From the IMG/VR virus record IMGVR_UViG_3300017722_005389: DNA of 64,000 nt, one strand, 5' to 3'. Position 1 is the stretch's first letter. Every line of letters starts with the position of its first letter. The stretch comes from a virus (lineage: Duplodnaviria; Caudoviricetes). The notes under the pieces were generated by a model. It did not search any database and was not told the origin of the DNA. It was given only the letters and a program-made list of their open reading frames with translations. Position numbers and translations under genes: made by a program. Positions 4,562-46,914 of this stretch are shown piece after piece.

Positions 4562-5341
4562 ATGATTTTACTTACAGAATCACAATTAAAACTATTAGTA
4601 GAACGTCAAGGTGATTTGGATTTTATTAAAACTTCAAATGAAATTTTTAATATTCTTTTTAAATTTACAAATTCTTTAGATGAAATTAAAAAAGATGGAT
4701 TACTCAGAAACGCTTTGGCAAACTTCCAAAGTAAGTTTCCTGAAATTTCTTTAGAAACCAAAAGAAGAAATCAAAAAATTGCGGATGTAATTTTGAAATA
4801 TACCATAAACTCAGAAGATTATTTTACTGAATTTGAAAATAAAGAACTTTCTTTTGAGATTTATTTTATTACCAATAAATTCAGATCTTATGGAGTTTAT
4901 GATGAACAGGGAATTATAAAAATTTATTGTGAAATGAATTCTTTAAAAGAATCATTTTCAGAAGCGTTTTTGAAACGTAAAGGTGAATTATCGCATGAGC
5001 TGAAACATTTTTATGACGATCAAAAAACAAAATTTAAAGCAAGTTCTAATTACCAGTATGCACCATCAAGATTGGTAAAAGGAAAAGAGAAAGATTTGAT
5101 GACAAAAAAATATTATAATCAGGCTTTTGAAAAAAATGCCTTCTTCACTACAATTTTACAAAAAGCAATTGAAATTTATGATTCATTGAAAGATGAATAT
5201 GGCACAAAAAATGAAGCGATCAAAGCTACATATAATGAATTAGAAGATTATATGGAAAGTCTTTATGATGATGGTTATTTTTCTGCAGACATAAAAAGAT
5301 ATATGCTTTCGAGGCTTTATACTTCTTTGGAAAAATTATGA
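4562..5341 (+). CDS. Leader-bearing protein with zincin HExxH motif
   Basis: Start re-called to MILLTESQLKLLVE (track 4511), TATTTATA at 4548; LSHELKH. Confidence 0.65.
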   Translation: MILLTESQLKLLVERQGDLDFIKTSNEIFNILFKFTNSLDEIKKDGLLRNALANFQSKFPEISLETKRRNQKIADVILKYTINSEDYFTEFENKELSFEIYFITNKFRSYGVYDEQGIIKIYCEMNSLKESFSEAFLKRKGELSHELKHFYDDQKTKFKASSNYQYAPSRLVKGKEKDLMTKKYYNQAFEKNAFFTTILQKAIEIYDSLKDEYGTKNEAIKATYNELEDYMESLYDDGYFSADIKRYMLSRLYTSLEKL

Positions 5342-5363
5342 TATTTATAATAAAATTATTCTA

Positions 5364-5852
5364 ATGAAAAAAATTTTGATTCTTGAGGAGACTTATAAAC
5401 TTCTTTTTGAAAACATCAATGATTATTCGAAATGGAAAAGAAAAAATGTTACATTGAGAGGAATGAAATCACTTGGTGTTGATAATGGAGTTTGGGGTTC
5501 CTTTGGAAGAGGATTATATACTGAGCCTTTAAGTAATAAAGCAATGGCAAAACAGTATGGTGATGTTTATTTTGTAGTAAATGCTGTTCCAAAAAATCCT
5601 AAAATTGTAAATGGAATGAATAATGCAGAACTATGGAGACAAGATTTGGTTGAAAAATTCTGTAAAGCACATGGGGTTGATTATAGTGTAGGATTTTTTG
5701 AAGAGCACACTTCAATAGAAGAAGAAATGTTGAAATTAGGTTATGATGGCTTTATGATCAAAGGACGAGAAATGGTAAATTACAAACCTGAAAATATTAA
5801 ATATTTTAGAAATGAAGATGAATTAAAACGTTATTTTGAATCTATTAATTAG
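5364..5852 (+). CDS. Leader-bearing ADP-ribosyltransferase-like protein (ART-PolyVal-like)
   Basis: Leader MKKILILEETYKLLFE; FGRGLYT, YG.VY, NP, GYDG, E.V.Y.P pattern. Confidence 0.5.
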   Translation: MKKILILEETYKLLFENINDYSKWKRKNVTLRGMKSLGVDNGVWGSFGRGLYTEPLSNKAMAKQYGDVYFVVNAVPKNPKIVNGMNNAELWRQDLVEKFCKAHGVDYSVGFFEEHTSIEEEMLKLGYDGFMIKGREMVNYKPENIKYFRNEDELKRYFESIN

Positions 5853-5894
5853 AAGAAATATAAAAAAAAGTTAAATACTAGAAAATAAATAATT

Positions 5895-5928
5895 AAAAAA
5901 AGGTGCTAAAAATTTTAGCACCTTTTTG
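5895..5928. terminator. Bidirectional intrinsic terminator
   Basis: AAAAAGGTGCTAAAA/TTTTAGCACCTTTTT hairpin between convergent genes. Confidence 0.85.
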
Positions 5929-5930
5929 TT

Positions 5931-6335
5931 TTAATGTTTCAATGTCAGAAGATATTTTGTTTTTGCGGTTAAAGCCATAACTTCATCAAGAAGATTTTTT
6001 ATAAAGCTTTCTTCAATCTGCTCATAATACCCCATAATTTTTTTGCAGAAGCCTTCCATGTATTTCATGGAACAACCTTCACTGTAAGGTTTGAATCTCA
6101 ATCCAAACTCACCATTGGTACGTTGGTGAGCCCCCATATAAACTTCAACGAGATTGTCGCTTAAATCTGAGATACCTTCATAAAATGCTCCCAAAGCCAT
6201 ATGCTCTGAATAGAAAGTTGTTTGTTGATGCCAGAATTTGATTTGAATAGTGGCATGTTCAAGACATTGAAAAAGGTCTAAAGAATTCAATTCTTCCATT
6301 GAATCTCCAAATCCCATTGAATTTTTATACTCCAT
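5931..6335 (-). CDS. Ferritin/Dps-like four-helix bundle protein (DUF5856-like)
   Basis: HWQ-like WHQQT, EH.ALG.FYE, D.LVE.Y.G, L.DE...L..KT.YLLTL. Confidence 0.7.
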   Translation of the reverse strand: MEYKNSMGFGDSMEELNSLDLFQCLEHATIQIKFWHQQTTFYSEHMALGAFYEGISDLSDNLVEVYMGAHQRTNGEFGLRFKPYSEGCSMKYMEGFCKKIMGYYEQIEESFIKNLLDEVMALTAKTKYLLTLKH

Positions 6336-6401
6336 ATTGAAACTTTTATTATAAATACTCTGTTAAGGATAAAATAAACAAGTATTAAATAAAAAAAGAT
6401 T

Positions 6402-6719
6402 ATGAAAGAATTAACAGAACGTACACTAAAGGAAGCATTGAAGGAAAATAAATTGGTTTTTAGTTACTATGGAGCCAAATGGTGTTCGCCATGTAATGCA
6501 ATACATCCAATTGTTGAAGAACTCTCAAAAGAAAATGATAATATTTTCATTGGAAAAGTAGATGTGGAAACAAATCCAGAACTTTGTGATGAATATGGCA
6601 TAAGAAGTATTCCAGCTCTCATATTTTATAAGAATGGAGAACCTGTTGAAAGATTACTTGGATTTCATAGTAAAGCTGATCTTCAAGCAGTTATAGATAA
6701 ACTTTCTAAGGAAAACTAA
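6402..6719 (+). CDS. trxA: Thioredoxin
   Basis: WCSPC active site, KVDVE, GIRSIP, F.KNGE. Confidence 0.9.
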   Translation: MKELTERTLKEALKENKLVFSYYGAKWCSPCNAIHPIVEELSKENDNIFIGKVDVETNPELCDEYGIRSIPALIFYKNGEPVERLLGFHSKADLQAVIDKLSKEN

Positions 6720-9004: not shown

Positions 9005-9436
9005 ATGAAGTCTATTAAGATTACTGAAGAGGTTTATAATAAATTACTTTCGGAGAAAAAAAAGAAGCGAGATAGATGTCTCAGAATTGCCGATAGAGTG
9101 TATGATAAACCTTCTTCATATAAATCAGGTGCTGCTGAAAGATGTAGACAAGGTAAAATTTGGAAGGGATTAAGTGAAGATTATATTAAAAATTTGATTA
9201 ATGAAATTATTTCTGAAGATGAATCTCTTCACAAATGGTTTTCAAGAAAGGGGGCTCCAGGAAAATCTGGTGGATGGGTAGATTGTAATACATGTAGAAA
9301 CGTTGATGGAAAAACAAAATGCAAAAGTTGTGGAAGGGAAAAAGGAGAAACAAGAAGTAAGTATCCATCTTGCAGACCTACACCTGGAAAATGTAAAGAT
9401 ACTGGAAAGGGAAAAACTTGGGGAAAAACAAAATAA
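9005..9436 (+). CDS. Leader-bearing basic Cys-rich protein
   Basis: TATTTATA at 8990; MKSIKITEEVYNKLLSE; second Glu site then L.KWF..GGWVDC..CGR..KYP.C.P module. Confidence 0.7.
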   Translation: MKSIKITEEVYNKLLSEKKKKRDRCLRIADRVYDKPSSYKSGAAERCRQGKIWKGLSEDYIKNLINEIISEDESLHKWFSRKGAPGKSGGWVDCNTCRNVDGKTKCKSCGREKGETRSKYPSCRPTPGKCKDTGKGKTWGKTK

Positions 9437-11388: not shown

Positions 11389-11856
11389 TTATTTCGTTTT
11401 TGATAATATACAAGTGAATAAATTAGTAAGTTCGGTAAAATCAATTCCTTTAGACATAACTTCTGTAAGAGCATCGCCTATTTCAACCATACCAGGAGAC
11501 TTTTTACTTGAAATTGTCTGCAATATTAATTTTGTAGTTTCTGGATATTTTTTCATGCCTTCTAGTGTGGCTCCAATTCCAGCTTCTATTAAACATGGCT
11601 CAATTTTTTTAAGCATATCTGGAGGTAATGAAGAAGAACCACCAGCATTTTTAAACGCATCATCAGCACCTTTGCCAACAGTATATGTGCCACCAGCATA
11701 ACCAGGTATAGATATTTGTTCTTTAACAACTTGTCTTATAACATTAGTTAACTTTCTTTTGGATTCTACAACATTCATTGGAGCTTTTGAAGTTTCACCC
11801 TGTTCTTTAATAATTGACTTAACAATTTGTCTTAATTCACTTAATTTAATTTTCAT
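11389..11856 (-). CDS. Leader-bearing hypothetical protein (double leader)
   Basis: MKIKLSELRQIVKSIIKEQ plus internal KLTNVIRQVVKEQ; motif at 11884-11891. Confidence 0.7.
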   Translation of the reverse strand: MKIKLSELRQIVKSIIKEQGETSKAPMNVVESKRKLTNVIRQVVKEQISIPGYAGGTYTVGKGADDAFKNAGGSSSLPPDMLKKIEPCLIEAGIGATLEGMKKYPETTKLILQTISSKKSPGMVEIGDALTEVMSKGIDFTELTNLFTCILSKTK

Positions 11857-11993: not shown

Positions 11994-12080
11994 TTAACTT
12001 CCGATTGACAAAGGCTTATTCATTTCTTCTTTAATAATAAATTTGACAAGCTTTCTGAATTCGCTTAATTTAATTTTCAT
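11994..12080 (-). pseudogene. Leader-only 28-aa stub (MKIKLSEFRKLVKFIIKEEMNKPLSIGS)
   Basis: Translated by hand; not in the track; stop 9 codons after the IIKEE leader. Confidence 0.5.
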
Positions 12081-14978: not shown

Positions 14979-15488
14979 ATGAATGATTTGAGAAAGTTTA
15001 TTAAAAATATTATAAAAGAATTTTTAAATGAACAACAAATGTTAAACAGTGATGGTATATGGTATCACGGTAGTGATTTTAAAAAACCAAATTTTGATTC
15101 TGATTTTAAACCTATTTTTTTTACTAAAAGTAAAGAGTATGCTGAAGGTTATGGTAAGTTTGTTAATTCATATAAATTAAACATAAAAAATCCATTAGAT
15201 ACAAGAATAGAAAAAGATTTAATATTTTATAATGAAAAATTCATACCTTGGACTAAAGAGTATAAATACACTGAAAAAGATGGTAGATATAATACATTAG
15301 ATAAAGGATTGGCTGTTCCTATGATAACAGCAAATTTATTGTATCTGTTTTTACGAAAATCAAAAAGAGAAGGATTAAATCATAATTATGATGGTGTTAT
15401 TGTTGATGAATCGGGATTTGAATTTGATAACGAGTTGGCAAAATATTCTTTATTTCCTTTGTCATTCACACAAATTTTAAATATATGA
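14979..15488 (+). CDS. Leader-bearing ADP-ribosyltransferase (ART-PolyVal-like)
   Basis: MNDLRKFIKNIIKEFLNE; WYHGS, IFFT.SKEYA..YG, L.IKNPLD, YDGVI, F...QI; TATTTATA at 14958. Confidence 0.7.
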   Translation: MNDLRKFIKNIIKEFLNEQQMLNSDGIWYHGSDFKKPNFDSDFKPIFFTKSKEYAEGYGKFVNSYKLNIKNPLDTRIEKDLIFYNEKFIPWTKEYKYTEKDGRYNTLDKGLAVPMITANLLYLFLRKSKREGLNHNYDGVIVDESGFEFDNELAKYSLFPLSFTQILNI

Positions 15489-19848: not shown

Positions 19849-20088
19849 TTACTTTTTAGGAGAACCACCTATGTATGCAGCTTTACCTAACATAGAATCT
19901 ATTTCTTGAGAAATAACAACAGGATTATACCCTTTCTTGTTTATGATTGATTGTTGTGCAATTTTAGGAACCTTGCTCCACGCATCAATTAAATTATTTA
20001 ATGCCTGAATAGAAGCTTGATCTACTTCTTCTTTGATAATTTTTCTGATTAAGTTAGTGAACCCTTTTTGTGAAACTTTGTTATACAT
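19849..20088 (-). CDS. Small leader-bearing protein
   Basis: FTNLIRKIIKEE; motif at 20105-20112. Confidence 0.55.
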   Translation of the reverse strand: MYNKVSQKGFTNLIRKIIKEEVDQASIQALNNLIDAWSKVPKIAQQSIINKKGYNPVVISQEIDSMLGKAAYIGGSPKK

Positions 20089-29247: not shown

Positions 29248-30216
29248 ATGCTAACACTTTTTGAAACATATAAGTTAATTTTAGAATCTAAACTTCTTTC
29301 GGAAGAGGTAAATTACTTCAAAGATAAGACAAATGTACACGATTATGACAAAGTTTTCAACAAGCAAAACGATCAACTTCCAAAGGAATACAAAAACTGG
29401 GAAGCAGAAATCGATTATATGACAATGGAAGAATATTTTCAAGAATGTGCAGAATTTCAAAATTCAACATTTGAACAACAAATAAACCTTCTATGGCAAC
29501 CAAAAGTGGATAATATTGCAACAAAAATGAAAGAAGGAGTGAAATATGATATGCCTTATCTTGATTATGTTAACGATAGACAAGAAGGCAGACATCGTGT
29601 AGCAGCTGCAACAGAATTAGGTCAAAAAAAAATACCTGTGTTAATACTTTATAAATCCCAAAAAACAATCAGACAAGAATCAACAGATTTAATAAATATG
29701 TTAGGCAAATGGGATGACTTGGTAACAAAGCATGGAAGCTATTATTGCGTTTTTCAGGGAACCGATTGGGAAGCACGTATCGAATTACTCAGACATGCTG
29801 TAGAATATTTAGACGGCTATTATTTAGATCATCTACTCGATATCAAAATTGGAACTTATAATTATAAAAGCATAGAAGAATATTTAAAATACGAAAAAAA
29901 TTATGATTATGGATACATTAATCATCGTGGTAGATACAAAAATTTTAATGAATTCTTAAAAGCCTTTGCTATTATGAAAAATAATCAAGATATGATTGAT
30001 GATGTAGTTATAGTAGAAAGTGATAGGCTTCTTTTGAAAATTTTAGATGATATTAACACAGATTTTACATCCTATTCAAGCTGTAAAGAAATGTTGAAAG
30101 GTGTTCGTAATAAGAAATACTATGTAAAAGCATACTCGCTCCAAGATGAATACACAGATCCAGAAATGTATTCAAAATACACCAAAGAAGCCCGAAAACT
30201 GTTCAATGAAGCATAA
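29248..30216 (+). CDS. Leader-bearing protein with ParB/Srx-like domain
   Basis: MLTLFETYKLILE..LLSEE; P.LDY..QEGRHR.AAA..LG...IPV; TATTTATA at 29233. Confidence 0.6.
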   Translation: MLTLFETYKLILESKLLSEEVNYFKDKTNVHDYDKVFNKQNDQLPKEYKNWEAEIDYMTMEEYFQECAEFQNSTFEQQINLLWQPKVDNIATKMKEGVKYDMPYLDYVNDRQEGRHRVAAATELGQKKIPVLILYKSQKTIRQESTDLINMLGKWDDLVTKHGSYYCVFQGTDWEARIELLRHAVEYLDGYYLDHLLDIKIGTYNYKSIEEYLKYEKNYDYGYINHRGRYKNFNEFLKAFAIMKNNQDMIDDVVIVESDRLLLKILDDINTDFTSYSSCKEMLKGVRNKKYYVKAYSLQDEYTDPEMYSKYTKEARKLFNEA

Positions 30217-32176: not shown

Positions 32177-33325
32177 ATGAAAAAAATAATCCTCACAGAA
32201 AATCAATATAGGCTTCTTTTGAAAGAAGCATCAGGAGTTCCAAACAATATTATAAATGTTGCTTCACAAATATATAATCAATTAATTAAAGATTTAAAAA
32301 ATGATGAACAATTGATCTATGATTTTAATAATACTAAATTTAAAATAAATAGAAATTTTGAAATAGGCGATGTTACTTTCAAAGACAGTTATATCAATTT
32401 AATTTTAAGTGTAGGTGGTGATGAAATAACCCCATATCAATTTGGAACAAATCCAAAAGATTATCAATATTTTACTAATGATTTGAAACTTAAACCAAAA
32501 AATGAAACCCTACCAATTATTGTTGATGTTGGTTTTATGGTTAGTACCGATACTACTGTAAAAGATTTCAAAAATCATTTGATATCCAATGAAACTGAAT
32601 ATGTATCAACCATAGCACATGAAATAAAACACGCATATGATTTAATTAAAAATCCTAAGCCTAATATAGATTCTATGGCTAACTATTTAGCAAATACAAG
32701 TATGTCAGCCTATGAGTTTGAAGAATTTTTTTATAACTTATATTATATAGAAAATGTTGAAAATTTGGTAAGACCCACAGAAATTATTACTCAAATTGAA
32801 AAACTTGGAATAACTAAAAAAGATTTTTTATCATTCATAACCTCAAATAAAGTGGTGACTCAATTAAAAGAAATACAATCATTTAGTTTTGATGACTTAT
32901 ATAATTCAATCTTAAAAGAAAGGTTGGAAAAAAATAAAAATAGAAGAGAATTAAATCACTACACTCTTGAATACACACCATTACCACCAAAAGAAGAATC
33001 TGAAATTGTTCAAGAATTAAATAATACCTTAGATAGAATATTCCAAATCCATAAAAGAAATAGAGTAGAAGGTTTCATAAATATTCTTGAAGAAATATTT
33101 GATACAAAAGAAATACCCGAAGAAATTAAGAAAAATGCAATAGAAAAATTTGAAAAGGATACCAATAAATTATTTGGTGGGAATTCAGCTAATTTTTATA
33201 GAGAAGCAGAAAAATTAATGAAAACTAAATCTACTGAAGTTTTACGAAAGATTTATGGATTATATGCTTTAACTAAAGACAATCCAGATAATGTAAAAAA
33301 TACCCAAAACATATTCAAAAGGTAA
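32177..33325 (+). CDS. Leader-bearing zincin metallopeptidase-like protein
   Basis: MKKIILTENQYRLLLKE; TIAHEIKHAYD; TATTTATA at 32164. Confidence 0.65.
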   Translation: MKKIILTENQYRLLLKEASGVPNNIINVASQIYNQLIKDLKNDEQLIYDFNNTKFKINRNFEIGDVTFKDSYINLILSVGGDEITPYQFGTNPKDYQYFTNDLKLKPKNETLPIIVDVGFMVSTDTTVKDFKNHLISNETEYVSTIAHEIKHAYDLIKNPKPNIDSMANYLANTSMSAYEFEEFFYNLYYIENVENLVRPTEIITQIEKLGITKKDFLSFITSNKVVTQLKEIQSFSFDDLYNSILKERLEKNKNRRELNHYTLEYTPLPPKEESEIVQELNNTLDRIFQIHKRNRVEGFINILEEIFDTKEIPEEIKKNAIEKFEKDTNKLFGGNSANFYREAEKLMKTKSTEVLRKIYGLYALTKDNPDNVKNTQNIFKR

Positions 33326-33336: not shown

Positions 33337-33909
33337 ATGAAAAAAATAATCCTCACAGAGAATCAATATAGACTTCTTTTGAAAGAAAATGAAAAATCTC
33401 TTGAAAAATTTTATCAAGAAAATAATATCGATGAAGATGATCTTTCATATTTAGGTAAAGGTGATTTTGGTAAAGCTTATTCAATAGGAAATAGAAGAGT
33501 TCTAAAGATAACTTCCTCAAAAAATGAATTTGAAATTGCAAAAGAACTTAAAAATAATAATTCACCTGTATTTGATTCATTTGCAAAAATCTATAAGACT
33601 GAAATAATTGGTAGAGATATGTATATTATTTTAGAAGAATTAGATACAGATTCAAGTATACAAGATTTATATTATGAACTGCAAAATCTTTTAGATGAAC
33701 AAGGTCTTCCAATTCAATATCTTAGTTATTTAGATACAGATGAATTGAATATATCTAAAAAATTACAAAGTTTCATGGATGATATGGAAGATATCATAAG
33801 AGCTTATAGAACTTTAGGCATAGAAGCTTCTGATATAAGACCTGAGAATTTAGGTTATTCGGAAAACTTAAAATTGAAAGCATTTGATATAGATAATAAA
33901 CAAAGATGA
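33337..33909 (+). CDS. Leader-bearing Ser/Thr protein-kinase-like protein
   Basis: LGKGDFGKAY, VLKIT, alphaC Glu, DIRPEN, FD. Confidence 0.75.
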   Translation: MKKIILTENQYRLLLKENEKSLEKFYQENNIDEDDLSYLGKGDFGKAYSIGNRRVLKITSSKNEFEIAKELKNNNSPVFDSFAKIYKTEIIGRDMYIILEELDTDSSIQDLYYELQNLLDEQGLPIQYLSYLDTDELNISKKLQSFMDDMEDIIRAYRTLGIEASDIRPENLGYSENLKLKAFDIDNKQR

Positions 33910-34646
33910 AAAAAATAATCCTCACAGAAAATCAATATAGACTCCTTTTGAAAGAAGCAAAGGAAAATGTAATATACATTCCATATGACGATGATGACTA
34001 TGATGAACAAGAATCAAGCATAGATGAATACCAAGCTGCAGATGATGCCCTCAAAATTGCAAAAGAAACAGGTGTCAATATCCTAAGAGATAAAAATATC
34101 AAAGGAATACTTTATGATACTAATGAAAAAATTGTAGTAGGAGCACTATGGACTTCAGATGACTCAGATACATTCTCCTTCGATATAGCCATAACCCCAT
34201 CATACCAAAATCAAGGACTCTCATCTGAACTTATAAGTAATGCTATAGATGAATATAATAACCAAAAAAGTATGTATGATGAGATGGGAGAACCTTTCGG
34301 TATGGAAGTAGATGTTATAAATCCAAAGTTGGCGCAAATATTAACAAAACACTACGGATTTAAAACTATCAAAAATGTAAACGACACAAGAGTCTTAATG
34401 ACTATTAACGATCAAAAAGATGAAACCGTCAAGTGTAGTAACTGTGGTTGGGAATGGAAATTAAAAGATGGTGGCAAAAAACCATATTTATGTCATAAGT
34501 GTGGTCATGATAACTCAAAGGCAGAATTAACTGAAAGATGTTGGAAAGGTTACACTCAAAAAGGAATGAAAACAATGTTCGGAAAAAAATACCCTAATTG
34601 TGTTAAAAAAATAAATGATACAAGAACCCTAATAAACATCAAATGA
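33906..34646 (+). CDS. Leader-bearing GNAT acetyltransferase with Zn-ribbon and CWKGY module
   Basis: FDIAI.P.YQNQGL...L; CSNC..CHKC; LTE-RCWKGY..KG.K.MFGK.YPNCVK. Confidence 0.7.
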   Translation: MKKIILTENQYRLLLKEAKENVIYIPYDDDDYDEQESSIDEYQAADDALKIAKETGVNILRDKNIKGILYDTNEKIVVGALWTSDDSDTFSFDIAITPSYQNQGLSSELISNAIDEYNNQKSMYDEMGEPFGMEVDVINPKLAQILTKHYGFKTIKNVNDTRVLMTINDQKDETVKCSNCGWEWKLKDGGKKPYLCHKCGHDNSKAELTERCWKGYTQKGMKTMFGKKYPNCVKKINDTRTLINIK

Positions 34647-35107
34647 AAAAAATAATCCTCACAGAAAATCAATATAACTTCCTTTTGAAAGAAAATAGAT
34701 CTGAATTATACTCCTATTTAGAATCTGTTAAAGATAATATTGCTAAAGCAGCTCAAAAAGTTTATGATAATTGGGAACAAGATGAAGAAGGTTATGATGA
34801 AGTTTATGGAGGCGGAGGTATCTGCGATGATATAGCTGACGCAATGTGCAATGTAATACAAGGATATGATTGCTTTCATTTATATAATGAACATGATTGC
34901 CATACTTCTATCTATGTTTACGATACTGAAAATAAGGAAATTTATAATGTAGACATCCCTCCGTATAAATATGAAAAAGGATATGGATATACCTGGGAAA
35001 AAATACAAGATGTAGAATTATCAAATAAAGATGTTCAAATAAATGATTTAACTTACGATGAATATATTGATGAAGACGGAGAACCTCTTGAATATCTTTT
35101 TAATTAA
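34643..35107 (+). CDS. Leader-bearing acidic protein, possible Cys-His hydrolase
   Basis: MKKIILTENQYNFLLKE; GGGICDDIA..H. Confidence 0.55.
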   Translation: MKKIILTENQYNFLLKENRSELYSYLESVKDNIAKAAQKVYDNWEQDEEGYDEVYGGGGICDDIADAMCNVIQGYDCFHLYNEHDCHTSIYVYDTENKEIYNVDIPPYKYEKGYGYTWEKIQDVELSNKDVQINDLTYDEYIDEDGEPLEYLFN

Positions 35108-35230: not shown

Positions 35231-35938
35231 ATGAAAAAAATAATCCTCACTGAAAATCAATACGAAAAATTAAAACATGATGCATCCTATTACGATGAAT
35301 CTAATACACGCATCCCTAAAGAAATAGAATTTAATAAGTTAGGCGTAGATGACGAACTTACTATATACTTCAAAGATAATGTTGATAAAGACACCATAAC
35401 CGAATTTCTTAAAGAATTTAACTCCGCAAGAAAAAAAATAGAAAATAGATTCAAACTCAAACTCGGTAGACAATATAAGGATCCAGATGCTCAATATAAT
35501 ATATTCTTTGGAAAAAATATTGTCTTCGATGATACATATAATGGATACAGCTCCGCAGAATACATAAGAGGCTATGCACAACATTCTCCCACAGACAGCT
35601 TCTACTTCAACCTACCTAAAGTCAAAGAACTTTACGATATGGCAAAAAAAGACTGGATACCAAACCCAAACTATAAAGCAAATAAATCAAGAAGCTATAA
35701 TATTAATAAAATAGAAGACATCATTATACACGAAATAGCACACGCCCTCTATTTCCAACAACCAACCTCCAAAAGAAAACAATGGGAAGAATACTTCAAT
35801 CAAGAAGGTTGGCAAAACGCCACATCATTTTATGGGCAAGAAAATGATCAAGAAATGTTTGCTGAAACCATTGTTGACCTCATTAATGGAGAATCTAATC
35901 AAGCAGTATCTGACCTTGTTGAAATATTTGACTTCTAA
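35231..35938 (+). CDS. Leader-bearing zincin metallopeptidase (MPTase-like)
   Basis: MKKIILTENQYEKL; IIIHEIAHAL, S.YG..N..E.FAE. Confidence 0.7.
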   Translation: MKKIILTENQYEKLKHDASYYDESNTRIPKEIEFNKLGVDDELTIYFKDNVDKDTITEFLKEFNSARKKIENRFKLKLGRQYKDPDAQYNIFFGKNIVFDDTYNGYSSAEYIRGYAQHSPTDSFYFNLPKVKELYDMAKKDWIPNPNYKANKSRSYNINKIEDIIIHEIAHALYFQQPTSKRKQWEEYFNQEGWQNATSFYGQENDQEMFAETIVDLINGESNQAVSDLVEIFDF

Positions 35939-36002: not shown

Positions 36003-36638
36003 ATGAAAAAAGTAGTCAAATTAAATGAATCAGATCTTACTAAATTGGTAAGAAAAATTATTAAAGAAAATCTTATCAATGAAGGGATAAGAGCTTACCG
36101 TGATTTTACAGAATTAGTTCGTATGGGAGGATTTAGTTCATCAGAATATTATATAACAATCGACACAGAACCCTTCGTATTAAAATTTACATCTACAAAA
36201 AACCCAAGTGGTATATTTTATATGGGTGATAATGATTGTGCAGGATCAGCTAAAGTTGTTGACTATGCAGTAAATTTATTTTACTCTGAAGCAAATAAAG
36301 AATTACCTTCGGATCAATTACAACCATTTGCCAAAAACATTGTAAAAACAGTTGATCAATATGCAAAAAGAAATTCTTTAATTCAATTTAAAGACTTATA
36401 TAATAATATAAAAGCCATAAATAATCCAAAGGTAATCTATAAAGTTTCATTTTTTGAAAATAATCCTTCCTCATTATCAAATATGATGTCTATGGGAAAT
36501 TTTAAAGATGTGCTTTCAAATGAACAACAACATTATCTGATAGAACATTACTTCAAAAATACTATGATGCAAGTAGTCGGAAATGGTAAAACTTATAAAG
36601 TATACTCACTATGCTATAAATCTCATTCTCTTGAATAG
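36003..36638 (+). CDS. Leader-bearing hypothetical protein
   Basis: MKKVVKLNESDLTKLVRKIIKENLINE. Confidence 0.7.
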   Translation: MKKVVKLNESDLTKLVRKIIKENLINEGIRAYRDFTELVRMGGFSSSEYYITIDTEPFVLKFTSTKNPSGIFYMGDNDCAGSAKVVDYAVNLFYSEANKELPSDQLQPFAKNIVKTVDQYAKRNSLIQFKDLYNNIKAINNPKVIYKVSFFENNPSSLSNMMSMGNFKDVLSNEQQHYLIEHYFKNTMMQVVGNGKTYKVYSLCYKSHSLE

Positions 36639-36707: not shown

Positions 36708-36731
36708 AAAAGGGTTCAAAAGAACCCTTTT
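36708..36731. terminator. Bidirectional terminator at the +/- strand switch
   Basis: AAAAGGGTTC / GAACCCTTTT. Confidence 0.75.
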
Positions 36732-37477
36732 TTGCTTCCTTTAGGTATATTATTGGAATTTCTATATTTAACCAAAAAATCATGCAAAGCTTTTATCTTT
36801 TCATAAGGAGTACTGTTACGATAAGCATTTAAATCTGTTGTAGACAACTCACTATCTAAAAGAAACAATTTTTCCCAATCTTTGAACACTCCCATATATT
36901 CAGGATGCTCCTCTACAAAATATTCAAAGGCTGGATAATTTATATCCCCTCCAACAAATATTTCAGAAGGATTTATTTTCGCATAGTTTATTGAACCATC
37001 CGAATCTATAATATTCTTAGCCTCTTGATATGCTCTTTCAAGCTCTTCTTTAGTATGTAAATTTAAATACGCAAATTCTAAGAATCTACTCAAAGGCTTA
37101 GTCAAAACAGAATTACCTAAAGCAGGTTTAATCAATTCTTCAAAAGATTCTAATGTTTTCTGTGCATTTCTTTTTCTCGTTAAAAGAATTAAATCTTGCC
37201 TGGTCTTTGTTATTAATTTATCTAAATTTTTAATGAATTCATCACTCTGATTCTTTCTATACCATTCATCAAATCCCTCTGGATCATCCATGAATTCATC
37301 TTGCTTACTGTTCCAATCAAAATTACTTTGATAATAATGACCGTACTCGTTTTTTAATGTATCTAATACTTCTTTGGGGAATGCATTAAAATTAACATCA
37401 AAATTTACATCCTCTCTTAAAACTTTCTGCGCATTCAACACACGAAGCTGCTTAACTATGAACTCTCTTAATAACAT
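36716..37477 (-). CDS. Leader-bearing hypothetical protein
   Basis: MLLREFIVKQLR; motif at 37489-37496. Confidence 0.7.
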   Translation of the reverse strand: MLLREFIVKQLRVLNAQKVLREDVNFDVNFNAFPKEVLDTLKNEYGHYYQSNFDWNSKQDEFMDDPEGFDEWYRKNQSDEFIKNLDKLITKTRQDLILLTRKRNAQKTLESFEELIKPALGNSVLTKPLSRFLEFAYLNLHTKEELERAYQEAKNIIDSDGSINYAKINPSEIFVGGDINYPAFEYFVEEHPEYMGVFKDWEKLFLLDSELSTTDLNAYRNSTPYEKIKALHDFLVKYRNSNNIPKGSKKGFF

Positions 37478-37514: not shown

Positions 37515-38075
37515 TTACCCCCTTCCATAAAATGCTAATATTTTTTTTCGACCTAATTCAACATGTGCAGCCATTCTATGAGCACCATCACGAAATCTAC
37601 TATCAGTGTAAATTATTGGAGGCAACTCTTCACCACTTCTTATGATATCCATATATTCGTTAACCCTATCAAAATGCTCTAAATCTTCATAATCATCTGC
37701 TAATCTATATTTAGTAAAACTTTCAATTGTTGGAACATACATCAATTCATATTCACCTCTAAATTTACCTGTTGAATCATCCGCAAAATGCCCCATCCTT
37801 TCATATACTTCTGGCAAATCTTCAGCAGAAACAATTTCCCCTAATTTAACACCACCCCATTCAATTCTTTCATCTTCAGATATAGGCTCCACTTCAGGTT
37901 TTGGTGTCGATCTTAATAACGCTTCTAATTTAGGAATATTAGCAATTTCTTCAGGTGTGCCTTCACCGTAATATTTCAACCAGGCTAATTCAATAAATAA
38001 CTCATCGTACCCTTCATCATTAATTTCTTCATTCAATTGACGAAGCTGCTTAACTATGAACTCTCTTAACAACAT
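37515..38075 (-). CDS. Leader-bearing ParB/Srx-like protein
   Basis: MLLREFIVKQLRQLNEE; LPPII..DGAHR.AA...G. Confidence 0.65.
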   Translation of the reverse strand: MLLREFIVKQLRQLNEEINDEGYDELFIELAWLKYYGEGTPEEIANIPKLEALLRSTPKPEVEPISEDERIEWGGVKLGEIVSAEDLPEVYERMGHFADDSTGKFRGEYELMYVPTIESFTKYRLADDYEDLEHFDRVNEYMDIIRSGEELPPIIYTDSRFRDGAHRMAAHVELGRKKILAFYGRG

Positions 38076-38186: not shown

Positions 38187-39029
38187 TTATCCGTTAATAT
38201 ATCTATACAAATATGACACAAGCTTTGAACGCATCTTTATTGATAGTAATTCAAATCCGTTAAAATTATTCAATAAAAACTTGTAAGATGAATTGAAATC
38301 TTTAAGCTTTATTCTATTTCTTTTGACTTTACTTAACAACTCTGAAAAACTTGCCCAAACTTCAGAAGTTTGAGTGATATAGTCATTTCCATACCCATCA
38401 ACATAATCGATGCCTATTTTATTATTACTTCTATAATCATCAAACATGTGTCTTAATTCATGGGATAAATTATATATGTAAATGGGTATTAAATATTTTT
38501 GCACTATTTTTTTAACCTCTTCTTTTGTCAATTCACGATCATACTTCTTTTCTAATTTTCTAATACTGGCATATATTAAAGAATTTGTTTCTTGATGATT
38601 GTAATTAATTTTTATTGTGTTTGAATCAAATCCATATGCTAAATTACCATAGACATTAGAGGGCAATCTATTGGTAAAAATAACAATGCATTTTGTAATG
38701 TGTAAAAACTCTTCAAATTCATCATCAAACCCCTTTTCTGACCATTTGTTAAATATTGCATCACATTTTATTTTATAATCATCCTGTAAAATTTCTATAC
38801 CAGTACTATTTTCTAAATCATCCATGATATAATCAATTATTACACTCAAATCCAATTTAGATACTATTTCCTTAGATACTTCATATAAACTATTTTGACT
38901 GCTTAAAAATCCCTCATTAAGCATATTTTCACTATTTTTAACATTTTTTGAATACACCGAAATATCCTCAAATGAATTCTCATTCAAATATTCTATTATA
39001 GTTGCCTTTATAAACTCTCTTAACAACAT
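38187..39029 (-). CDS. Leader-bearing zincin HExxH protein
   Basis: Start re-called to MLLREFIKATIIEYLNE; LSHELRH..D, Y....EV.A. Confidence 0.65.
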   Translation of the reverse strand: MLLREFIKATIIEYLNENSFEDISVYSKNVKNSENMLNEGFLSSQNSLYEVSKEIVSKLDLSVIIDYIMDDLENSTGIEILQDDYKIKCDAIFNKWSEKGFDDEFEEFLHITKCIVIFTNRLPSNVYGNLAYGFDSNTIKINYNHQETNSLIYASIRKLEKKYDRELTKEEVKKIVQKYLIPIYIYNLSHELRHMFDDYRSNNKIGIDYVDGYGNDYITQTSEVWASFSELLSKVKRNRIKLKDFNSSYKFLLNNFNGFELLSIKMRSKLVSYLYRYING

Positions 39030-41122: not shown

Positions 41123-42124
41123 TTAAAGAGGATTTCTTACTAATCTTTGTAAATTATCTTTAATACTTAGTATTATATTTCGTATGGTACTAAGTTGCCC
41201 TTTAACCTGTTCAATTCCCATACTTTCATCAAGTTTATTAACATATCTATTTAAATCCATAATAAGTCTATCAAAATAATTATCAACTGCAGTAATTTTA
41301 AAACTATTTTCAAAAATATTCCTTTTTGATTTTTTATTTCGTGATAAATAACTTTCTGATAAAGGAAGATTTAAAATAGAAGCAATTGAATCTTCAATAG
41401 GAGCTAATATTTGATCAACTGAATTAGAAAACATTTTTTCTGTAATATTGTCATCAATATATTTGTACTTTAAAGTTTCAAAACTTCTATTGAATTGTCT
41501 TACATTATCTTTCATTTGTTGCAATTTAGCCCCTAATTCATTATTTTGTGATTTAGGCGTATTTTGCTGCTGAGGAACGTTATTTTGCTGCTGAGGAACG
41601 TTATTTTGCTGCTGAGGAGTATTATTTTGCTGCTGAGGATATAATGGTTCAACTATTGGTATTAAATCTAGCATTCGATCTATAGACATTTTAAAAGGCA
41701 AAAGTCCATATTGAAATTTTCTGATAAAGTTATCTAATTCATCATTATCCGAAATTTCATAAATTTTCTTTAAAACTGAAAAAACTTCCAATGTTGCTTC
41801 AAGGATTTTAGGAAGCCTAATTTTCAATATTGAAAGAGTATCTAAAGGAGAAGCTGAATTTGGTAATTCAACCTTAAACATGTTATAAACTGCACTAGAT
41901 AATGTACTGTATTTTTCAAAATAATTTTCGACTAAATTTGAAACCTTAGAAGTATCAGTATTATTTAAAAATCTCTTAAATTCAGTTTGAATTTCTATAG
42001 CGTTGTTATAGTTTCCTATGAGTACTTTAAATTCATTACGCATCTCTTCTTTTGGATCCCTTTCAACTTCCTCTTTAATAACTCTTCTTACTAATTTTTT
42101 TAATTCATTCAACTTGATTTTCAT
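41123..42124 (-). CDS. Leader-bearing helical protein with PQQQNN repeats
   Basis: MKIKLNELKKLVRRVIKEE; motif at 42154-42161. Confidence 0.7.
   Translation of the reverse strand: MKIKLNELKKLVRRVIKEEVERDPKEEMRNEFKVLIGNYNNAIEIQTEFKRFLNNTDTSKVSNLVENYFEKYSTLSSAVYNMFKVELPNSASPLDTLSILKIRLPKILEATLEVFSVLKKIYEISDNDELDNFIRKFQYGLLPFKMSIDRMLDLIPIVEPLYPQQQNNTPQQQNNVPQQQNNVPQQQNTPKSQNNELGAKLQQMKDNVRQFNRSFETLKYKYIDDNITEKMFSNSVDQILAPIEDSIASILNLPLSESYLSRNKKSKRNIFENSFKITAVDNYFDRLIMDLNRYVNKLDESMGIEQVKGQLSTIRNIILSIKDNLQRLVRNPL
41560..41639. repeat. 21-bp in-frame tandem repeat x4
   Basis: TATTTTGCTGCTGAGGA at 41560, 41581, 41602, 41623. Confidence 0.9.
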
Positions 42125-42225: not shown

Positions 42226-43236
42226 TCAATCTCGTTCAGTTAATTTTATTTTATCTATAATATATTGTATTAACCGAATGGTTTCAGATGAAACATATTG
42301 ATAGTTACCAAAATTTTTATTATTAGAAGCATATTCATTTAAATCATCCTCCATTCCTTGCAAACGTTCTAAATATTTCTGTGAATACCCTTTAAGTAAA
42401 TGTATCCAATTATCATTACTTTTTAAAAAATTTGTTAACTCTTTTAAACCACTAACTATTTCATTTTTTTCCTCATTATCAATATCTTCTTCATAATCCA
42501 TTTCCAATATACTTACAGCATTTTGCAATTTAATCATTTTTTCTGAAAAATCTTTAATGCCATTAGTTTTTTCTTGTATTTTTTTATCTATATCTGGATA
42601 ATCTTCCAATAAATCATCGTCAAATTTTATTTTTGGATTTTTGTTTGAAAAATCTCTTGTAACAATATCTAGAATAATTCTTATTATCTTATTTTCATCA
42701 AATTTATTTCTTGTAATTGATACAATCATTGGATCAAAATAACCCTCAAAATAAATTGAATAAAATTCATTGTCATTTGCAATCTTTTCCCAAATATTTC
42801 GAGCTTGAGGTGTTGCTGATGGTGTTGAACTTGCCCACCCCAAAAATTTAATAAAACTCTTATAAATTAAATAACCCAAACCATATCCCCTCAACTCTTC
42901 AGGTATTCCATCTGAAAAATGAATCCTATTTTTTGGTAATCTTTCAGATGTAATAATAATATTACTTAATATTTTATTTTTATCTTTAATGTTTTTAAAA
43001 TGAGTATTAATAAATTCATCCGAAAAAATTACATGATAATCATCATAGATATAATCAGCTGTTATCTTTTCAAAAGATATTCCATCAATACCTGAAATTT
43101 TATGCCCCCTCTTTTCATAATTTGGTTTCATTGTATAATCTAAATAGGTATCGGTTAAATCAAGTCCCTCCTCAAATTCTACTGATAACTCTTGAACAAT
43201 TCTATTATATTGACTCTCAGTAATTATAATTTTCAT
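42226..43236 (-). CDS. Leader-bearing GNAT-like protein
   Basis: MKIIITESQYNRIVQE; LRGYGLGYLIY, S...A..IW.K; motif at 43250. Confidence 0.6.
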   Translation of the reverse strand: MKIIITESQYNRIVQELSVEFEEGLDLTDTYLDYTMKPNYEKRGHKISGIDGISFEKITADYIYDDYHVIFSDEFINTHFKNIKDKNKILSNIIITSERLPKNRIHFSDGIPEELRGYGLGYLIYKSFIKFLGWASSTPSATPQARNIWEKIANDNEFYSIYFEGYFDPMIVSITRNKFDENKIIRIILDIVTRDFSNKNPKIKFDDDLLEDYPDIDKKIQEKTNGIKDFSEKMIKLQNAVSILEMDYEEDIDNEEKNEIVSGLKELTNFLKSNDNWIHLLKGYSQKYLERLQGMEDDLNEYASNNKNFGNYQYVSSETIRLIQYIIDKIKLTERD

Positions 43237-44605: not shown

Positions 44606-44956
44606 AAGATATACTAAAAATTTTCTAAAGGAGGTAATGTATATGTTCAATAGTAGCAATATACGTAAAGTACTGAACTTTGGCACTGATTGCGACCTGA
44701 GCCTTCACTCAGGGTACAGCAAAGGTGGGAAGCATTTTTGAGAAAACCAAATTTTTTTGGAACTTTAACAAAAAATATTTTTGGTATTAGAATATGTTCA
44801 ATATACGAAAATTTCGATTTAGTGTTGGGTTGGATTACAAACCCCCAACTTTACAGTTTAGCCTCCGATAGTATCAAAGGTACGACTTTCTTCTGACATT
44901 TCATAATTTTTCTTAAGAAAATTTCAGTTTCTTTATATTTATTTTAAAAGCAGGCA

Positions 44957-45793
44957 ATGAAAATAATTATAACTGAATCTCAACATAAATTTTTGATAAG
45001 CGAAAATTATGATCTAACCCCAGAAGAGATGGACCAGGTTAGGGAATTAGCTAGAAAAAGAGCTGTTCAAACATTAGAAAATTTGAAGAAAAATGTAGGT
45101 GAATTAACTCAAAGGATAGAGAGAATGGAAAATATTGATTATTCAAAAATACCTCCAGATGTTGCTGAAACACTTAAAGAAACCATGGATACTCTTTATA
45201 AGGAAACATCAAGAGATTTAAAATATAATAAAAAACAACTGGAGGAATTTGATCTGGAAGATTCTATTGAAAAACTTGTTAAATGGGATTTAAGTTCTGC
45301 AAACGGTATAAGTCATGAGTTCAGATATCAAAAATATAAGAAGGAGGCATTGAATCGTAAATTAACAAAAGAAGATATAATCAATTTATTTGTCACAGCT
45401 CTCGAAGGTGGATCCAATTATTGGTATTACGTAGGAAATTCTGATAAGATTAATAATACAGGCGAACCATCATCTGAAGAAATTGGTAAGTTTATATTGA
45501 ATGGTGGTGAAGTAATATTTTATGATAAAGAGCTCGTGGAAGAAATTTTGGGGAAAATGGATGATTCTTATTATCATATTCAAGGTGATATTGTGGATGA
45601 AAAATTATTCGCTGAAGATAAAGAGAAAGCATTATTGGGGCGTGTCGATATGGATTCAATTTTGAAAGGGATCAGTATTACTAAAGAAGATTACCCTGAA
45701 GTTTGGGAAAATATATTATTGGAACAATATGATGCAAATGATGCTGACGTCTTTCTGCAGTTGTGTGTGATGGGTGAAGTTGTATTTGGTTAA
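44957..45793 (+). CDS. Leader-bearing protein with conserved ALEGGSNYW..DA.DADV.LQ domain
   Basis: MKIIITESQHKFLISE. Confidence 0.7.
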   Translation: MKIIITESQHKFLISENYDLTPEEMDQVRELARKRAVQTLENLKKNVGELTQRIERMENIDYSKIPPDVAETLKETMDTLYKETSRDLKYNKKQLEEFDLEDSIEKLVKWDLSSANGISHEFRYQKYKKEALNRKLTKEDIINLFVTALEGGSNYWYYVGNSDKINNTGEPSSEEIGKFILNGGEVIFYDKELVEEILGKMDDSYYHIQGDIVDEKLFAEDKEKALLGRVDMDSILKGISITKEDYPEVWENILLEQYDANDADVFLQLCVMGEVVFG

Positions 45794-45811
45794 AAAATTT
45801 CTAAAGAAAAA

Positions 45812-45837
45812 AAAACGCTTCCTTTTGGAAGCGTTTT
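45812..45837. terminator. Bidirectional terminator
   Basis: AAAACGCTTCC / GGAAGCGTTTT. Confidence 0.85.
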
Positions 45838-45869
45838 GGTTTTTATGAAGAGTGGTTTTTGGCAGCTGT

Positions 45870-46190
45870 TTAAAATCTAAATCTAAATATCCCACTATTA
45901 AAAAGCTTTTTAACCTGTGGATTATATTTATTTGCTGGAGCATTTTTATATTGTGAAAAATCATCTTTGGTTAATTTTCTTCCCATTCGTTTTTCTAAAC
46001 AGTTCATACAAAGAGTATTTGATTCATTACCATATTCACTCCAGATGTCATCATTTACCATATACATATCGTAATCATAAGTACCACAATCCTTACAAGT
46101 GAATCTTTCAATCTCCTCTTGAGGTATATCGGTTTCTTCTTTGATAATTGCTTTTACAATTTGTCTGAGTTCGCTTAATTTGATTTTCAT
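45870..46190 (-). CDS. Leader-bearing Zn-binding protein
   Basis: MKIKLSELRQIVKAIIKEE; CKDC..YMV...W..LC..CLE.R.GR.L...DF. Confidence 0.7.
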   Translation of the reverse strand: MKIKLSELRQIVKAIIKEETDIPQEEIERFTCKDCGTYDYDMYMVNDDIWSEYGNESNTLCMNCLEKRMGRKLTKDDFSQYKNAPANKYNPQVKKLFNSGIFRFRF

Positions 46191-46200
46191 AAAGATTTTT

Positions 46201-46914
46201 TTATCTTATTTCTTGGTGTTTGTATAGAGTGAGAGCAAGTTCCCAGTTGTTTTCTGCTATATCTATTAGTTTATCAATTGTTTCTTTGTCTTTTTTCACA
46301 CGTCTTAATTTTTTAAAGTAATAAGCCATCATTTCGCCTGGATCCGCTACAATAGTCAAATTACGTTCTCTTGCTTCTTTAAATTCAAATGCAGATTTTA
46401 TTACGTAATCAGAAAAAAAGTAATTTTTTACGCTTAATTTAACTTCCCCTGTTGTAAAGAAATATTTAGCTTCATTAGCAGTTAATTTATAGTAGGTTTC
46501 ATCAGAATTTTCAGATTTTATCAAATTATCTTCAAAAGTCCTAAGAATTTTATCATATGATAGTAGATCCCCACTAGGATTGAAAATACTATCAGTTGAG
46601 CGTTTAAATCCATTACTACCAACTTTTTCAGAATATATTTTTTCATATTCTTCTTTAGTTTTTATCTCATTTAATTCATCCCAAGAAATATTATTTAAAG
46701 GCATACCAAAATAAAAACCCCATTTTATTTCAACGCCATTTTTATTTACAAATACACCTATACCATCAGGTTTTCCTTTTTCAATATTTCCTGTAAATTT
46801 TCCTCCTTCATAAGGGAAATCTTTAAAAAAAAACTCATTCAATATTTTTTTGTTTTGTTCTTCTTTGATAATTGCTTTTACAATTTGTCTGAGTTCGCTT
46901 AATTTGATTTTCAT
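46201..46914 (-). CDS. Leader-bearing protein with a MORN-like unit
   Basis: Same leader; Y.G.F.G....GK.DG.G.F; motif at 46925. Confidence 0.65.
   Translation of the reverse strand: MKIKLSELRQIVKAIIKEEQNKKILNEFFFKDFPYEGGKFTGNIEKGKPDGIGVFVNKNGVEIKWGFYFGMPLNNISWDELNEIKTKEEYEKIYSEKVGSNGFKRSTDSIFNPSGDLLSYDKILRTFEDNLIKSENSDETYYKLTANEAKYFFTTGEVKLSVKNYFFSDYVIKSAFEFKEARERNLTIVADPGEMMAYYFKKLRRVKKDKETIDKLIDIAENNWELALTLYKHQEIR

Follow-up and report, generated by a model that had tools for sequence, protein, structure and literature searches.

The 64,000-nucleotide stretch of Caudoviricetes DNA analysed here (IMG/VR record IMGVR_UViG_3300017722_005389; hereafter the window) contains 24 genes, starting between positions 4562 and 46914, whose products begin with one of three short leaders ending in Glu and then continue into cargo sequences that are unrelated to one another. 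We propose that these are T4-style capsid-targeting leaders, cleaved by a protease and carried by a large, fast-turning-over set of virion-packaged proteins, a reading to which we assign a probability of about 0.7. It is favoured because every computationally testable prediction of a first-pass annotation of this DNA came out in its favour.

Leaders, junctions and the upstream box

The 24 starts listed in the first-pass annotation are all the ATG of open reading frames (ORFs) of 79–453 aa, each with one of three leaders. Class A, found on 12 genes, reads MKKIILTE(N/S)QYxxLLxE; class B, on seven, reads MKIKLSELRQIVKxIIKE or, in a longer form, MKK(I/V)V(R/K)LNExDLTKLVRKII(K/S)E; and class C, on five, reads MxDL(R/K)xFIKxxIxEFLNE or MLLREFI...LNE. 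Hidden Markov models (HMMs) of the three classes, run against all six-frame ORFs of the window with a reversed-sequence control, returned 25 matches of 17.7–40.4 bits, so that the scan suggested by the annotation recovered the listed set within the window. All matches begin at model position 1–3, on or beside a Met, and none is internal; the next-best match scored 8.3 bits, and the maximum in the control was 9.2 bits. The 25th match, absent from the earlier list, is a leader-only ORF of 28 codons on the minus strand (12080–11994). Longer ORFs begin upstream at three of the leader sites (4511 for 4562, 35219 for 35231 and 39080 for 39029). At 4562 and at 39029 a conserved box, TATTTATA, sits between both candidate ATGs, which supports the earlier-listed starts there.

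The leaders are 15–22 aa long, amphipathic and basic, and every one contains (L/I)-x-E, the cleavage motif of T4 gp21. This motif falls within the first 22 residues in 25 of 25 leaders, as against 34 of 106 other genes (32%), and most leaders have two such sites, at residues 5–8 and 14–22. The annotation had expected a packaging leader to be rare on replication enzymes, and no recognisable replication or metabolic gene of the window has one: besides a holin, the recognisable genes encode RecX, thioredoxin, thymidylate synthase (ThyA), a deoxynucleoside monophosphate kinase, a PolB-type exonuclease, ParB and an alanyl-tRNA synthetase (AlaRS)-like fragment, all of them leader-free. The leader strings were not found in the literature searched.

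Beyond the leader, the proteins are unrelated, as had been claimed. An all-versus-all BLASTP comparison from residue 21 to the end gave one weak pair, 29248 and 38075, which align over 30 residues at a ParB-like GxHR motif (QEGRHR and RDGAHR). A single diverged paralogous family was considered and rejected, since the cargo lacks mutual similarity and differs in its predicted folds or families (ADP-ribosyltransferase (ART), kinase-like and GNAT-like) and in its motifs (HExxH and ParB-like).

At the DNA level, the junction is abrupt. In the tandem run at 32177–35938, the first 51 nt are 92–96% identical among the first four genes (96% for the leader DNA of 33337 and 32177) and about 70% identical for the fifth, 35231, while 46190 and 46914 are identical over their first 54 nt and then fall to random-level identity. 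Leader DNA identity of 88–100% drops to about 30% over the next 60 nt, and conservation stops exactly at the Glu. Such a pattern could be produced by a mobile cassette of promoter plus 5' gene end that drives recombination or shuffling at the DNA level, the peptide having no function of its own. This would also suit the existence of the orphan leader-only ORF, the observation that promoter-plus-leader modules make up nearly all the DNA shared with a 270-kb IMG/VR relative (G001, taken in full), and the precedent of the mobile regulatory cassettes of T4-type phages (PMC2839356). We nevertheless regard it as improbable, because diverged copies keep their amino acids synonymously: the leaders of 11856 and 46190 differ by six synonymous changes and one non-synonymous change. 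The corresponding differences are six and four for 23244 and 36003, and six and six for 43236 and 44957. Moreover, the three classes hold the same physicochemical pattern and terminal Glu with different codons, the junction Glu is invariant over 31 homologues of the 32177 protein that are 23–87% identical, and operon-internal genes have the leader without the promoter. Since amino acids are kept through synonymous change, the leader peptide itself is under selection. The identical leader DNA points to recent conversion or recombination on top of this selection, and recombination is more plausibly a further effect of the leader unit than its function.

The annotation had also noticed that many leader genes have their own upstream motif. 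The exact box TATTTATA lies 5–29 nt before the ATG in 17 of the 24, and 44957 has the variant TATTTATT; the six genes that have no box of their own (33337, 33906, 34643, 35231, 36003 and 46190) each directly follow a leader gene on the same strand. Just five of the approximately 107 other called genes of the window are preceded by the box, including the holin gene at 50647–51285 (−). It occurs 33 times in the window, 20 of them in sense orientation and at most 60 nt upstream of a gene, where about two would be expected by our own arithmetic from the share of the sequence that such positions occupy. In G001, the box stands 9–20 nt before the genes for the terminase, the protease, the core protein and the scaffold candidate described below, and also before several genes for virion-size proteins of more than 1,000 aa (tail-size) and before leader genes. 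It thus seems to mark a virion and late gene set, and late expression of the leader genes is more likely than early expression, because the box precedes virion genes in G001 and the holin gene in the window.

The short distance between box and ATG, together with the A-rich Lys codons with which the leaders begin, could also be taken to mean that the leader codons enhance translation initiation on late mRNAs with very short 5' untranslated regions. This is highly improbable in our view, as G001 head and tail genes with an equal promoter and spacing have no leader, and as an RNA element would need neither (L/I)-x-E nor synonymous conservation of amino acids.

Head module and prohead protease in leader-bearing relatives

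A degenerate DNA pattern for MKKIILTE finds 47 loci in IMG/VR with many different cargo sequences. These loci are mostly AT-rich, and many lie on contigs of 100–340 kb or have TATTTATA upstream. The string MKKIILTExQ occurs 34 times in IMG/VR, as against six occurrences, each of them atypical, in 596 Gb of bacterial and archaeal genome sequence.

The prohead protease that the first-pass annotation had proposed to look for was found in leader-bearing relatives. Peptidase_S77 scored above the Pfam cut-off in seven of the 12 large IMG/VR contigs searched, including both contigs that are at least 90% complete, and the five leader-bearing contigs that lack it are fragments (36–68% complete). Another five protease-bearing contigs that were tested all have class A leaders. 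Class C is restricted to the window phage and the G001/G003 lineage, bar one weak partial match in G009. A search seeded with the G001 protease puts the S77 family at no fewer than 7,809 homologues (E ≤ 1e-10); the homologues listed, all at least 76% identical to the G001 protein, do not include the protease of the window phage.

G001 has a T4-type head module with matches to Terminase_6N, Portal_T4, Peptidase_S77 (79 bits) and Gp23 (250 bits), and its genes follow the T4 order: terminase, portal, two small proteins, S77 protease, a 541-aa acidic scaffold candidate and Gp23. The 234-aa protein between portal and protease sits where T4 has gp67/gp68 and contains 15 [LI]xE sites, the highest density among 272 proteins (6.4 per 100 residues versus a median of 1.5). 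In the N-terminus of the capsid protein there are LLE, IKE, LKE, LYE and INE, with AAST after INE, near residue 66. If (L/I)-x-E specificity is retained by the protease, this is the appearance to be expected of a T4-like core protein and capsid propeptide.

The DNA shared by window positions 1–20000 and G001 consists of promoter-plus-leader modules, at 76–82% identity, and one short stretch at 10157–10212; of the 131 genes of the window, five have a homologue in G001 (E < 1e-5). The leaders are therefore far more conserved than the rest of the region.

These findings bear on whether the leader might be an address tag that directs the protein elsewhere than to the head (to the tail, baseplate or host membrane, or to a phage chaperone), or might mark it for degradation or timing. 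Amphipathic, basic helices are a generic trait of many interaction helices, and a 57-aa leader-bearing Zn-ribbon protein of G001 (37307–37480, −) is encoded among tail-size genes. Such a destination is, however, rather improbable, since it would explain neither the conserved (L/I)-x-E sites nor the invariance of the junction Glu, nor why the leaders occur together with an S77 protease and a T4-type head module. A secretion signal in particular was considered and rejected, because the longest hydrophobic run in any leader is four residues.

Further N-terminal families were seen in G001. At 174811–184326 and 210577–211059, a fourth leader class, MNLQENIxRIxxxM..(L/I)NE, stands on ART-like and other cargo, and a further class, MKILINE(N/T)QLSxII(N/K)E, on three neighbouring genes; neither occurs in the window. 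Separate from the leader genes are about 42 tandem paralogues beginning MEKEALKRIFDFLEEK..PFLWKL.NN.PLT.E (L055–L068; for example 40173–44045, 93366–96806, 150580–154260 and 222371–228245), as well as long arrays of mini-genes of 56–75 aa beginning MKNI, MRNV or MKNV (190490–201926, −). In another near relative, a contig in JGI 3300059473 known from its gene map, a homologue 86% identical to the 32177 protein lies about 8 kb from ParB, versus 16.4 kb in the window, and the sizes of the intervening genes differ; the leader-gene region therefore varies between near relatives.

Cargo proteins and the phage behind the window

The labels that the first-pass annotation gave to the cargo held to different degrees. 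The ART label is solid, and a kinase-like fold was supported at the level of a lead. The GNAT match stays below the Pfam cut-off. HExxH is present in four proteins and invariant in one family, and the zincin fold itself was not matched. The ParB-like label rests on the GxHR motif and an Atlas lead, and the MORN and Zn-finger labels on judgement by eye.

The cargo of 14979 is, on sequence and model evidence, an ART-PolyVal ADP-ribosyltransferase domain. Its Pfam score for this family is 23 bits, below the cut-off, and phmmer matches down to 2e-20 are to ART-PolyVal domains in proteins of 1.2–4.9 thousand aa, giant polyvalent proteins that also contain MuF_C, LPD23 and InPase. A candidate His-Tyr-Glu set (H30, Y58 and E144) is conserved. 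The AlphaFold2 (AF2) model has a mean predicted local distance difference test (pLDDT) score of 89.4 and consists of a helix at residues 2–23 followed by an ART-like domain; its fold matches, with weak E-values in a consistent list, are diphtheria-toxin- and PARP-type ADP-ribosyltransferases, a crystallised anti-CRISPR protein (6kyf) and a cyanophage pre-ejectosome protein. Stand-alone homologues have a class C leader (P0178, P0189, P0190, P0192 and P0210), a class B-like leader (P0158, 56% identical in the ART domain) or none.

The HExxH protein 32177 has 35 homologues, of which 31 were aligned. Invariant in this alignment are E17, G20, P22, the HExxH block and a few other residues. The leaders of this family range from three residues to the 17 of class A (MTE, MNE, MKKNLKE, MREIIKNVLSE and so on), and in every case the leader closes with [L/I/M]-x-E, after which comes xxGVP (GIP in two); the two homologues in G001 have the short leader MRKQMNE. 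Different leaders thus stand on the same ART or HExxH cargo, always up to the Glu, so that leader and cargo are independent modules joined at the Glu, and the leader swaps in both families bear out the expectation that the two recombine independently across phages. In its AF2 model (pLDDT 88.9), the 32177 leader forms a helix at residues 8–18 with a pLDDT of 67–80; in the 32177 and 14979 models alike, the leader is an N-terminal helix ahead of the globular domain and of lower confidence (67–85). No convincing match for the HExxH domain came from Foldseek against the PDB or from VIA-align wide, and BFVD returned uncharacterised phage proteins alone, so the cargo cannot be called a zincin on fold grounds.

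The leader could instead be a cleavable safety or activation propeptide alone, which keeps toxic enzymes inactive while packaging, if any, depends on the cargo. The 32177 homologues that keep [L/I/M]-x-E with leaders of 3–5 residues favour a role in cleavage over one in docking, and in the models the leader helices stand apart at the N-terminus, with lower pLDDT. A single 17-residue helix would, however, hardly inhibit twenty-five unrelated folds, the equivalent T4 leader suffices to package foreign proteins (PMC8442874, PMC5694885), and a gp21-type protease works inside the prohead, so that cleavage already implies packaging. We therefore consider a propeptide without a packaging role unlikely.

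Other cargo is less readily placed. An Atlas structure search aligns 33337, from about residue 15–25 to residue 190, with Pkinase and Phage_T7_kinase clusters (TM 0.54–0.61), and 33906 matches Acetyltransf_7 at E = 6e-5, below the cut-off. The C-terminal CxxC Zn-ribbon of the latter (33906–34646, residues 175–203) matches the stand-alone 57-aa leader-bearing protein of G001. The 46914 protein has just two homologues among 5.8 billion proteins, one of them a mosaic: P0002 shares 98% with the protein encoded at 46201–46914 over residues 72–125 and then has an unrelated C-terminus, which shows that mosaicism extends into the cargo and is not limited to the leader junction. In G001, leader cargo scoring above the cut-off includes ART-PolyVal (70.6 bits, class C) and a Tae4-type peptidoglycan amidase (37.7 bits, class A). 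A PHROGs search of 20 leader proteins gave no informative family, and PDB sequence searches with three cargo proteins gave no match.

Table 1. Leader genes and the orphan leader of the window, with HMM scores in bits and distances from the upstream box to the ATG.
Leader and cargo	Coordinates	Strand	Remarks
Class A (MILLTESQLKLLVE)	4562..5341	+	259 aa; HELKH motif; 18.8 bits; TATTTATA ends 6 nt upstream, downstream of ATG 4511
Class A (MKKILILEETYKLLFE)	5364..5852	+	162 aa; 26.1 bits; TATTTATA 14 nt upstream
Class A (MKSIKITEEVYNKLLSE)	9005..9436	+	143 aa; basic Cys-rich cargo, two CxxC pairs; 28.2 bits; TATTTATA 7 nt upstream
Class B (MKIKLSELRQIVKSIIKE)	11389..11856	-	155 aa; 29.6 bits; TATTTATA 27 nt upstream
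Orphan class B leader (MKIKLSEFRKLVKFIIKEE + 9 residues), no cargo	11994..12080	-	28 codons; 33.3 bits; likely remnant of cassette turnover
Class C (MNDLRKFIKNIIKEFLNE), ART-PolyVal cargo	14979..15488	+	169 aa; 31.2 bits; TATTTATA 13 nt upstream
Class B, longer N-terminus (MYNKVSQKGFTNLIRKIIKE)	19849..20088	-	79 aa; 40.4 bits; TATTTATA 16 nt upstream
Class A (MQKIILTENQYNFLLNE)	20998..22359	+	453 aa; 31.8 bits; TATTTATA 9 nt upstream
Class B, long form (MKKIVRLNERDLTKLVRKIISE)	22816..23244	-	142 aa; 32.6 bits; TATTTATA 10 nt upstream
Class C (MKDLKQFIKTTIREFLNE)	25172..25735	+	187 aa; 34.3 bits; TATTTATA 12 nt upstream
Class A-like (MLTLFETYKLILESKLLSE), ParB_N-like cargo (EGRHR)	29248..30216	+	322 aa; 17.7 bits; Atlas lead 0.91; TATTTATA 7 nt upstream
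Class A, HEIKH cargo	32177..33325	+	382 aa; first of six-gene same-strand run; TATTTATA 5 nt upstream
Class A, small protein-kinase-like cargo (GKGDFG, DIRPEN)	33337..33909	+	190 aa; no own promoter
Class A, GNAT-like domain and C-terminal Zn-ribbon	33906..34646	+	246 aa
Class A, cargo without label	34643..35107	+	154 aa; 34.1 bits
Class A (first LTE site alone kept), HEIAH motif	35231..35938	+	235 aa; Peptidase_M13 weak
Class B, long form (MKKVVKLNESDLTKLVRKIIKE)	36003..36638	+	211 aa; last of plus-strand run; 35.2 bits
Class C variant (MLLREFIVKQLRVLNAQ)	36716..37477	-	253 aa; 27.7 bits; TATTTATA 11 nt upstream
Class C variant (MLLREFIVKQLRQLNE), ParB_N-like (DGAHR)	37515..38075	-	186 aa; 28.9 bits; TATTTATA 10 nt upstream
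Class C (MLLREFIKATIIEYLNE), HELRH motif	38187..39029	-	280 aa; 33.5 bits; TATTTATA 10 nt upstream, downstream of ATG 39080
Class B (MKIKLNELKKLVRRVIKE), helical, Q-rich repeat	41123..42124	-	333 aa; 28.7 bits; TATTTATA 29 nt upstream
Class A (MKIIITESQYNRIVQE)	42226..43236	-	336 aa; 26.8 bits; TATTTATA 13 nt upstream
Class A (MKIIITESQHKFLISE)	44957..45793	+	278 aa; 25.4 bits; variant box TATTTATT upstream
Class B, Zn-ribbon-like cargo, two CxxC pairs	45870..46190	-	106 aa; second gene after 46914
Class B, MORN-like repeat by eye	46201..46914	-	237 aa; TATTTATA 10 nt upstream

The window is AT-rich (26–33% GC). The phage behind it, which is T4-related, is an uncultured jumbo phage, since one window-encoded protein is letter-identical on a 271,154-bp metagenome contig; the same protein is also letter-identical on a contig from a lake metagenome. 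A close relative was found neither in the isolate-phage database, where the best matches are 72% on thymidylate synthase (to a 636-kb uncultured phage) and otherwise weak and fibre-like, nor in IMG/VR by protein and exact-DNA search. Stop-codon recoding, with TAG or TGA read through, was considered and rejected, as long ORFs are not really gained by it. TGA terminates 24 genes, usually with another stop within a few codons, and the window therefore uses the standard genetic code. The thymidylate synthase gene (6811–7647, +) is interrupted by a single in-frame TGA at 7030–7032, which by eye seems to stand at a conserved Trp position (..GIKEIL*IYQKQT..), and the resulting split into 73 and 190 aa is called alike in two independent assemblies; this could reflect read-through as Trp, programmed suppression or a persisting pseudogene. 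A 97-nt element at 47964–48060 (+) matches a tRNA in Rfam at 37.3 bits (cut-off 29) and is not called by ARAGORN; it may represent a tRNA interrupted by an insertion or an intron, or else an element resembling a tRNA. Two adjacent paralogues of about 150 aa (55208–55660 and 55781–56239, −) both begin with MENLFLQAM, which is not of the leader type.

Proposed pathway and known counterparts

We envisage the following pathway for the leader proteins. A leader gene or short operon would be transcribed, probably late, from TATTTATA located 5–29 nt before the ATG, a box common to head, tail and lysis genes. The amphipathic leader of 15–22 residues would dock the protein on the scaffolding core of the prohead, by analogy with the T4 capsid-targeting sequence (CTS) MKTYQEFIAE. 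A prohead protease of the gp21 family (S77) would then cut after the Glu in (L/I)-x-E, so that the mature protein begins after the junction Glu, a step supported by the invariance of this Glu and by the density of (L/I)-x-E in the core protein. The cargo would stay in the head with the DNA and be ejected into the host. The injected set would comprise ART-PolyVal, small kinase, GNAT-like, HExxH, ParB_N-like and Zn-ribbon proteins, and in a relative a Tae4-type amidase; these types seem to fit injected effectors, which might have an anti-defence role, and low copy numbers could suffice because many of them are enzymes. Promoter and leader would together form a portable module of about 75 bp. The pattern of exchanged cargo is seen directly, and identical leader DNA in neighbouring genes, together with orphan leaders, points to recombination as the way in which cargo is swapped.

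Several points weigh against this proposal. Packaging, cleavage and ejection are steps that we infer, and the timing conferred by TATTTATA is read solely from the genes downstream of the box. Nor is the box identical with the T4 late promoter TATAAATA; read on the coding strand, it has the reverse-complement sequence, and the two are therefore not equated. The [LI]xE motif is frequent in a proteome rich in K, E, I and L, as its presence in 32% of the other N-termini indicates, and the 25 leaders are not independent samples. Homology of the leaders to the T4 CTS is not statistically demonstrable; class C (REFI...LNE) resembles QEFIAE by eye, and 10 residues are too few for statistics. The evidence for the protease comes from relatives that share few other window genes, rather than from the genome of the window phage. 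Most of the cargo is without a significant family assignment in Pfam or PHROGs. Finally, leaders of 3–5 residues, as in some 32177 homologues, cannot carry a targeting helix, and the invariant Glu could belong to the mature domain. To equate the leader alone with targeting may thus be too simple, as three-residue leaders (MTE and MNE) keep the cleavage motif without a long helix, and the Glu motif may mark a cleavage site, or just the start of a domain, without a docking helix.

The closest counterpart of the system is found in T4, where the internal proteins (Ips) and Alt join the scaffolding core via a CTS of 10–20 residues (MKTYQEFIAE on the Ips) that is removed by gp21 and that suffices to package foreign proteins, Alt being cut at ITE-6 and LTE-619 (PMC5694885, PMC8442874). 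The internal proteins of T-even phages are described as highly diverse, injected, defence-countering proteins that share the leader alone, and at least 10 Ips are known among T-even relatives (PMC3012670, PMC12373910, citing Repoila et al. 1994). As in the T4 CTS and polymorphic Ip loci (Mullaney & Black 1996; Repoila et al. 1994; PMC3012670, PMC12373910, PMC5694885), a short N-terminal leader ending in (L/I)-x-E is common to otherwise unrelated, non-essential proteins, an S77 protease and a T4-type head module are found in relatives that share the leader, an ADP-ribosyltransferase is among the cargo (compare Alt), and the loci are hypervariable. Class A leaders even have (L/I)TE at residues 5–8, like ITE-6 of Alt. 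The differences lie in number and in form. Where T4 has four leader proteins (Ip1–3 and Alt), the window has 24 genes and a probable remnant within 42 kb. The leaders fall into at least three classes in the window, with a fourth in a relative; at 15–22 aa they are also longer, and two cleavage motifs per leader are usual. Instead of being small basic inhibitors, much of the cargo has the size of enzymes; the upstream box is TATTTATA instead of TATAAATA, and the window phage is uncultured and AT-rich.

Another likeness is to the polyvalent proteins that phages and conjugative elements encode (with ART-PolyVal, MuF_C and LPD families), whose ART-PolyVal domain is homologous to the cargo of 14979. 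Zincin-like HExxH and ParB_N-like motifs would fit a polyvalent-type effector set. Unlike polyvalent proteins, the leader genes are separate ORFs of 79–453 aa with a leader each, and the ART-PolyVal domain alone is in common; the arrangement looks like the polyvalent solution unbundled into single genes. In giant phages such as the phiKZ-like ones and SPN3US, many inner-body and ejection proteins have N-terminal propeptides that are cut after Glu by an S80 prohead protease (PMC5694885, PMC7411985, PMC10052503). Paralogous families with identical N-termini and Glu-directed propeptide removal are common to both systems, but the propeptides there are mostly longer than 100 residues and the motif is (S/A/G)-x-E, as opposed to leaders of 15–22 residues, (L/I)-x-E and, in relatives, an S77 protease here.

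The principle is thus already known, namely diverse injected T-even proteins that share only a capsid-targeting leader (PMC3012670, PMC12373910), and the system described here is a much expanded variant of the T4 Ip/CTS logic, not a new kind of system. A broader view is tentative: that TATTTATA plus leader is a general mobile 'make-it-injectable' cassette in a very abundant environmental clade of T4-like jumbo phages. Recombination at identical leader DNA may then capture arbitrary genes, the leader classes may be non-redundant, setting copy number, core position or ejection order, and the whole may be the unbundled evolutionary counterpart of the giant polyvalent proteins. If this doubtful generalization were true, injected effectors would be readable from metagenomes by their leader.

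If the leaders are the packaging tags that we take them to be, a simple sequence signature would find dozens of virion-delivered proteins per uncultured jumbo-phage genome, an injected proteome that is otherwise invisible in these phages. It would yield a list of candidate enzymes for host takeover and for countering defences (ADP-ribosyltransferase, small kinase, acetyltransferase-like, HExxH, ParB-like and peptidoglycan amidase), and it would supply new short tags, each with a defined protease site, by which foreign proteins could be loaded into large capsids. It would also mean that the Ip/CTS strategy of T4 scales far beyond the T-even phages, and would link that strategy to the polyvalent proteins, with the same ART domain delivered either in a giant fusion or as a leader-tagged single gene.

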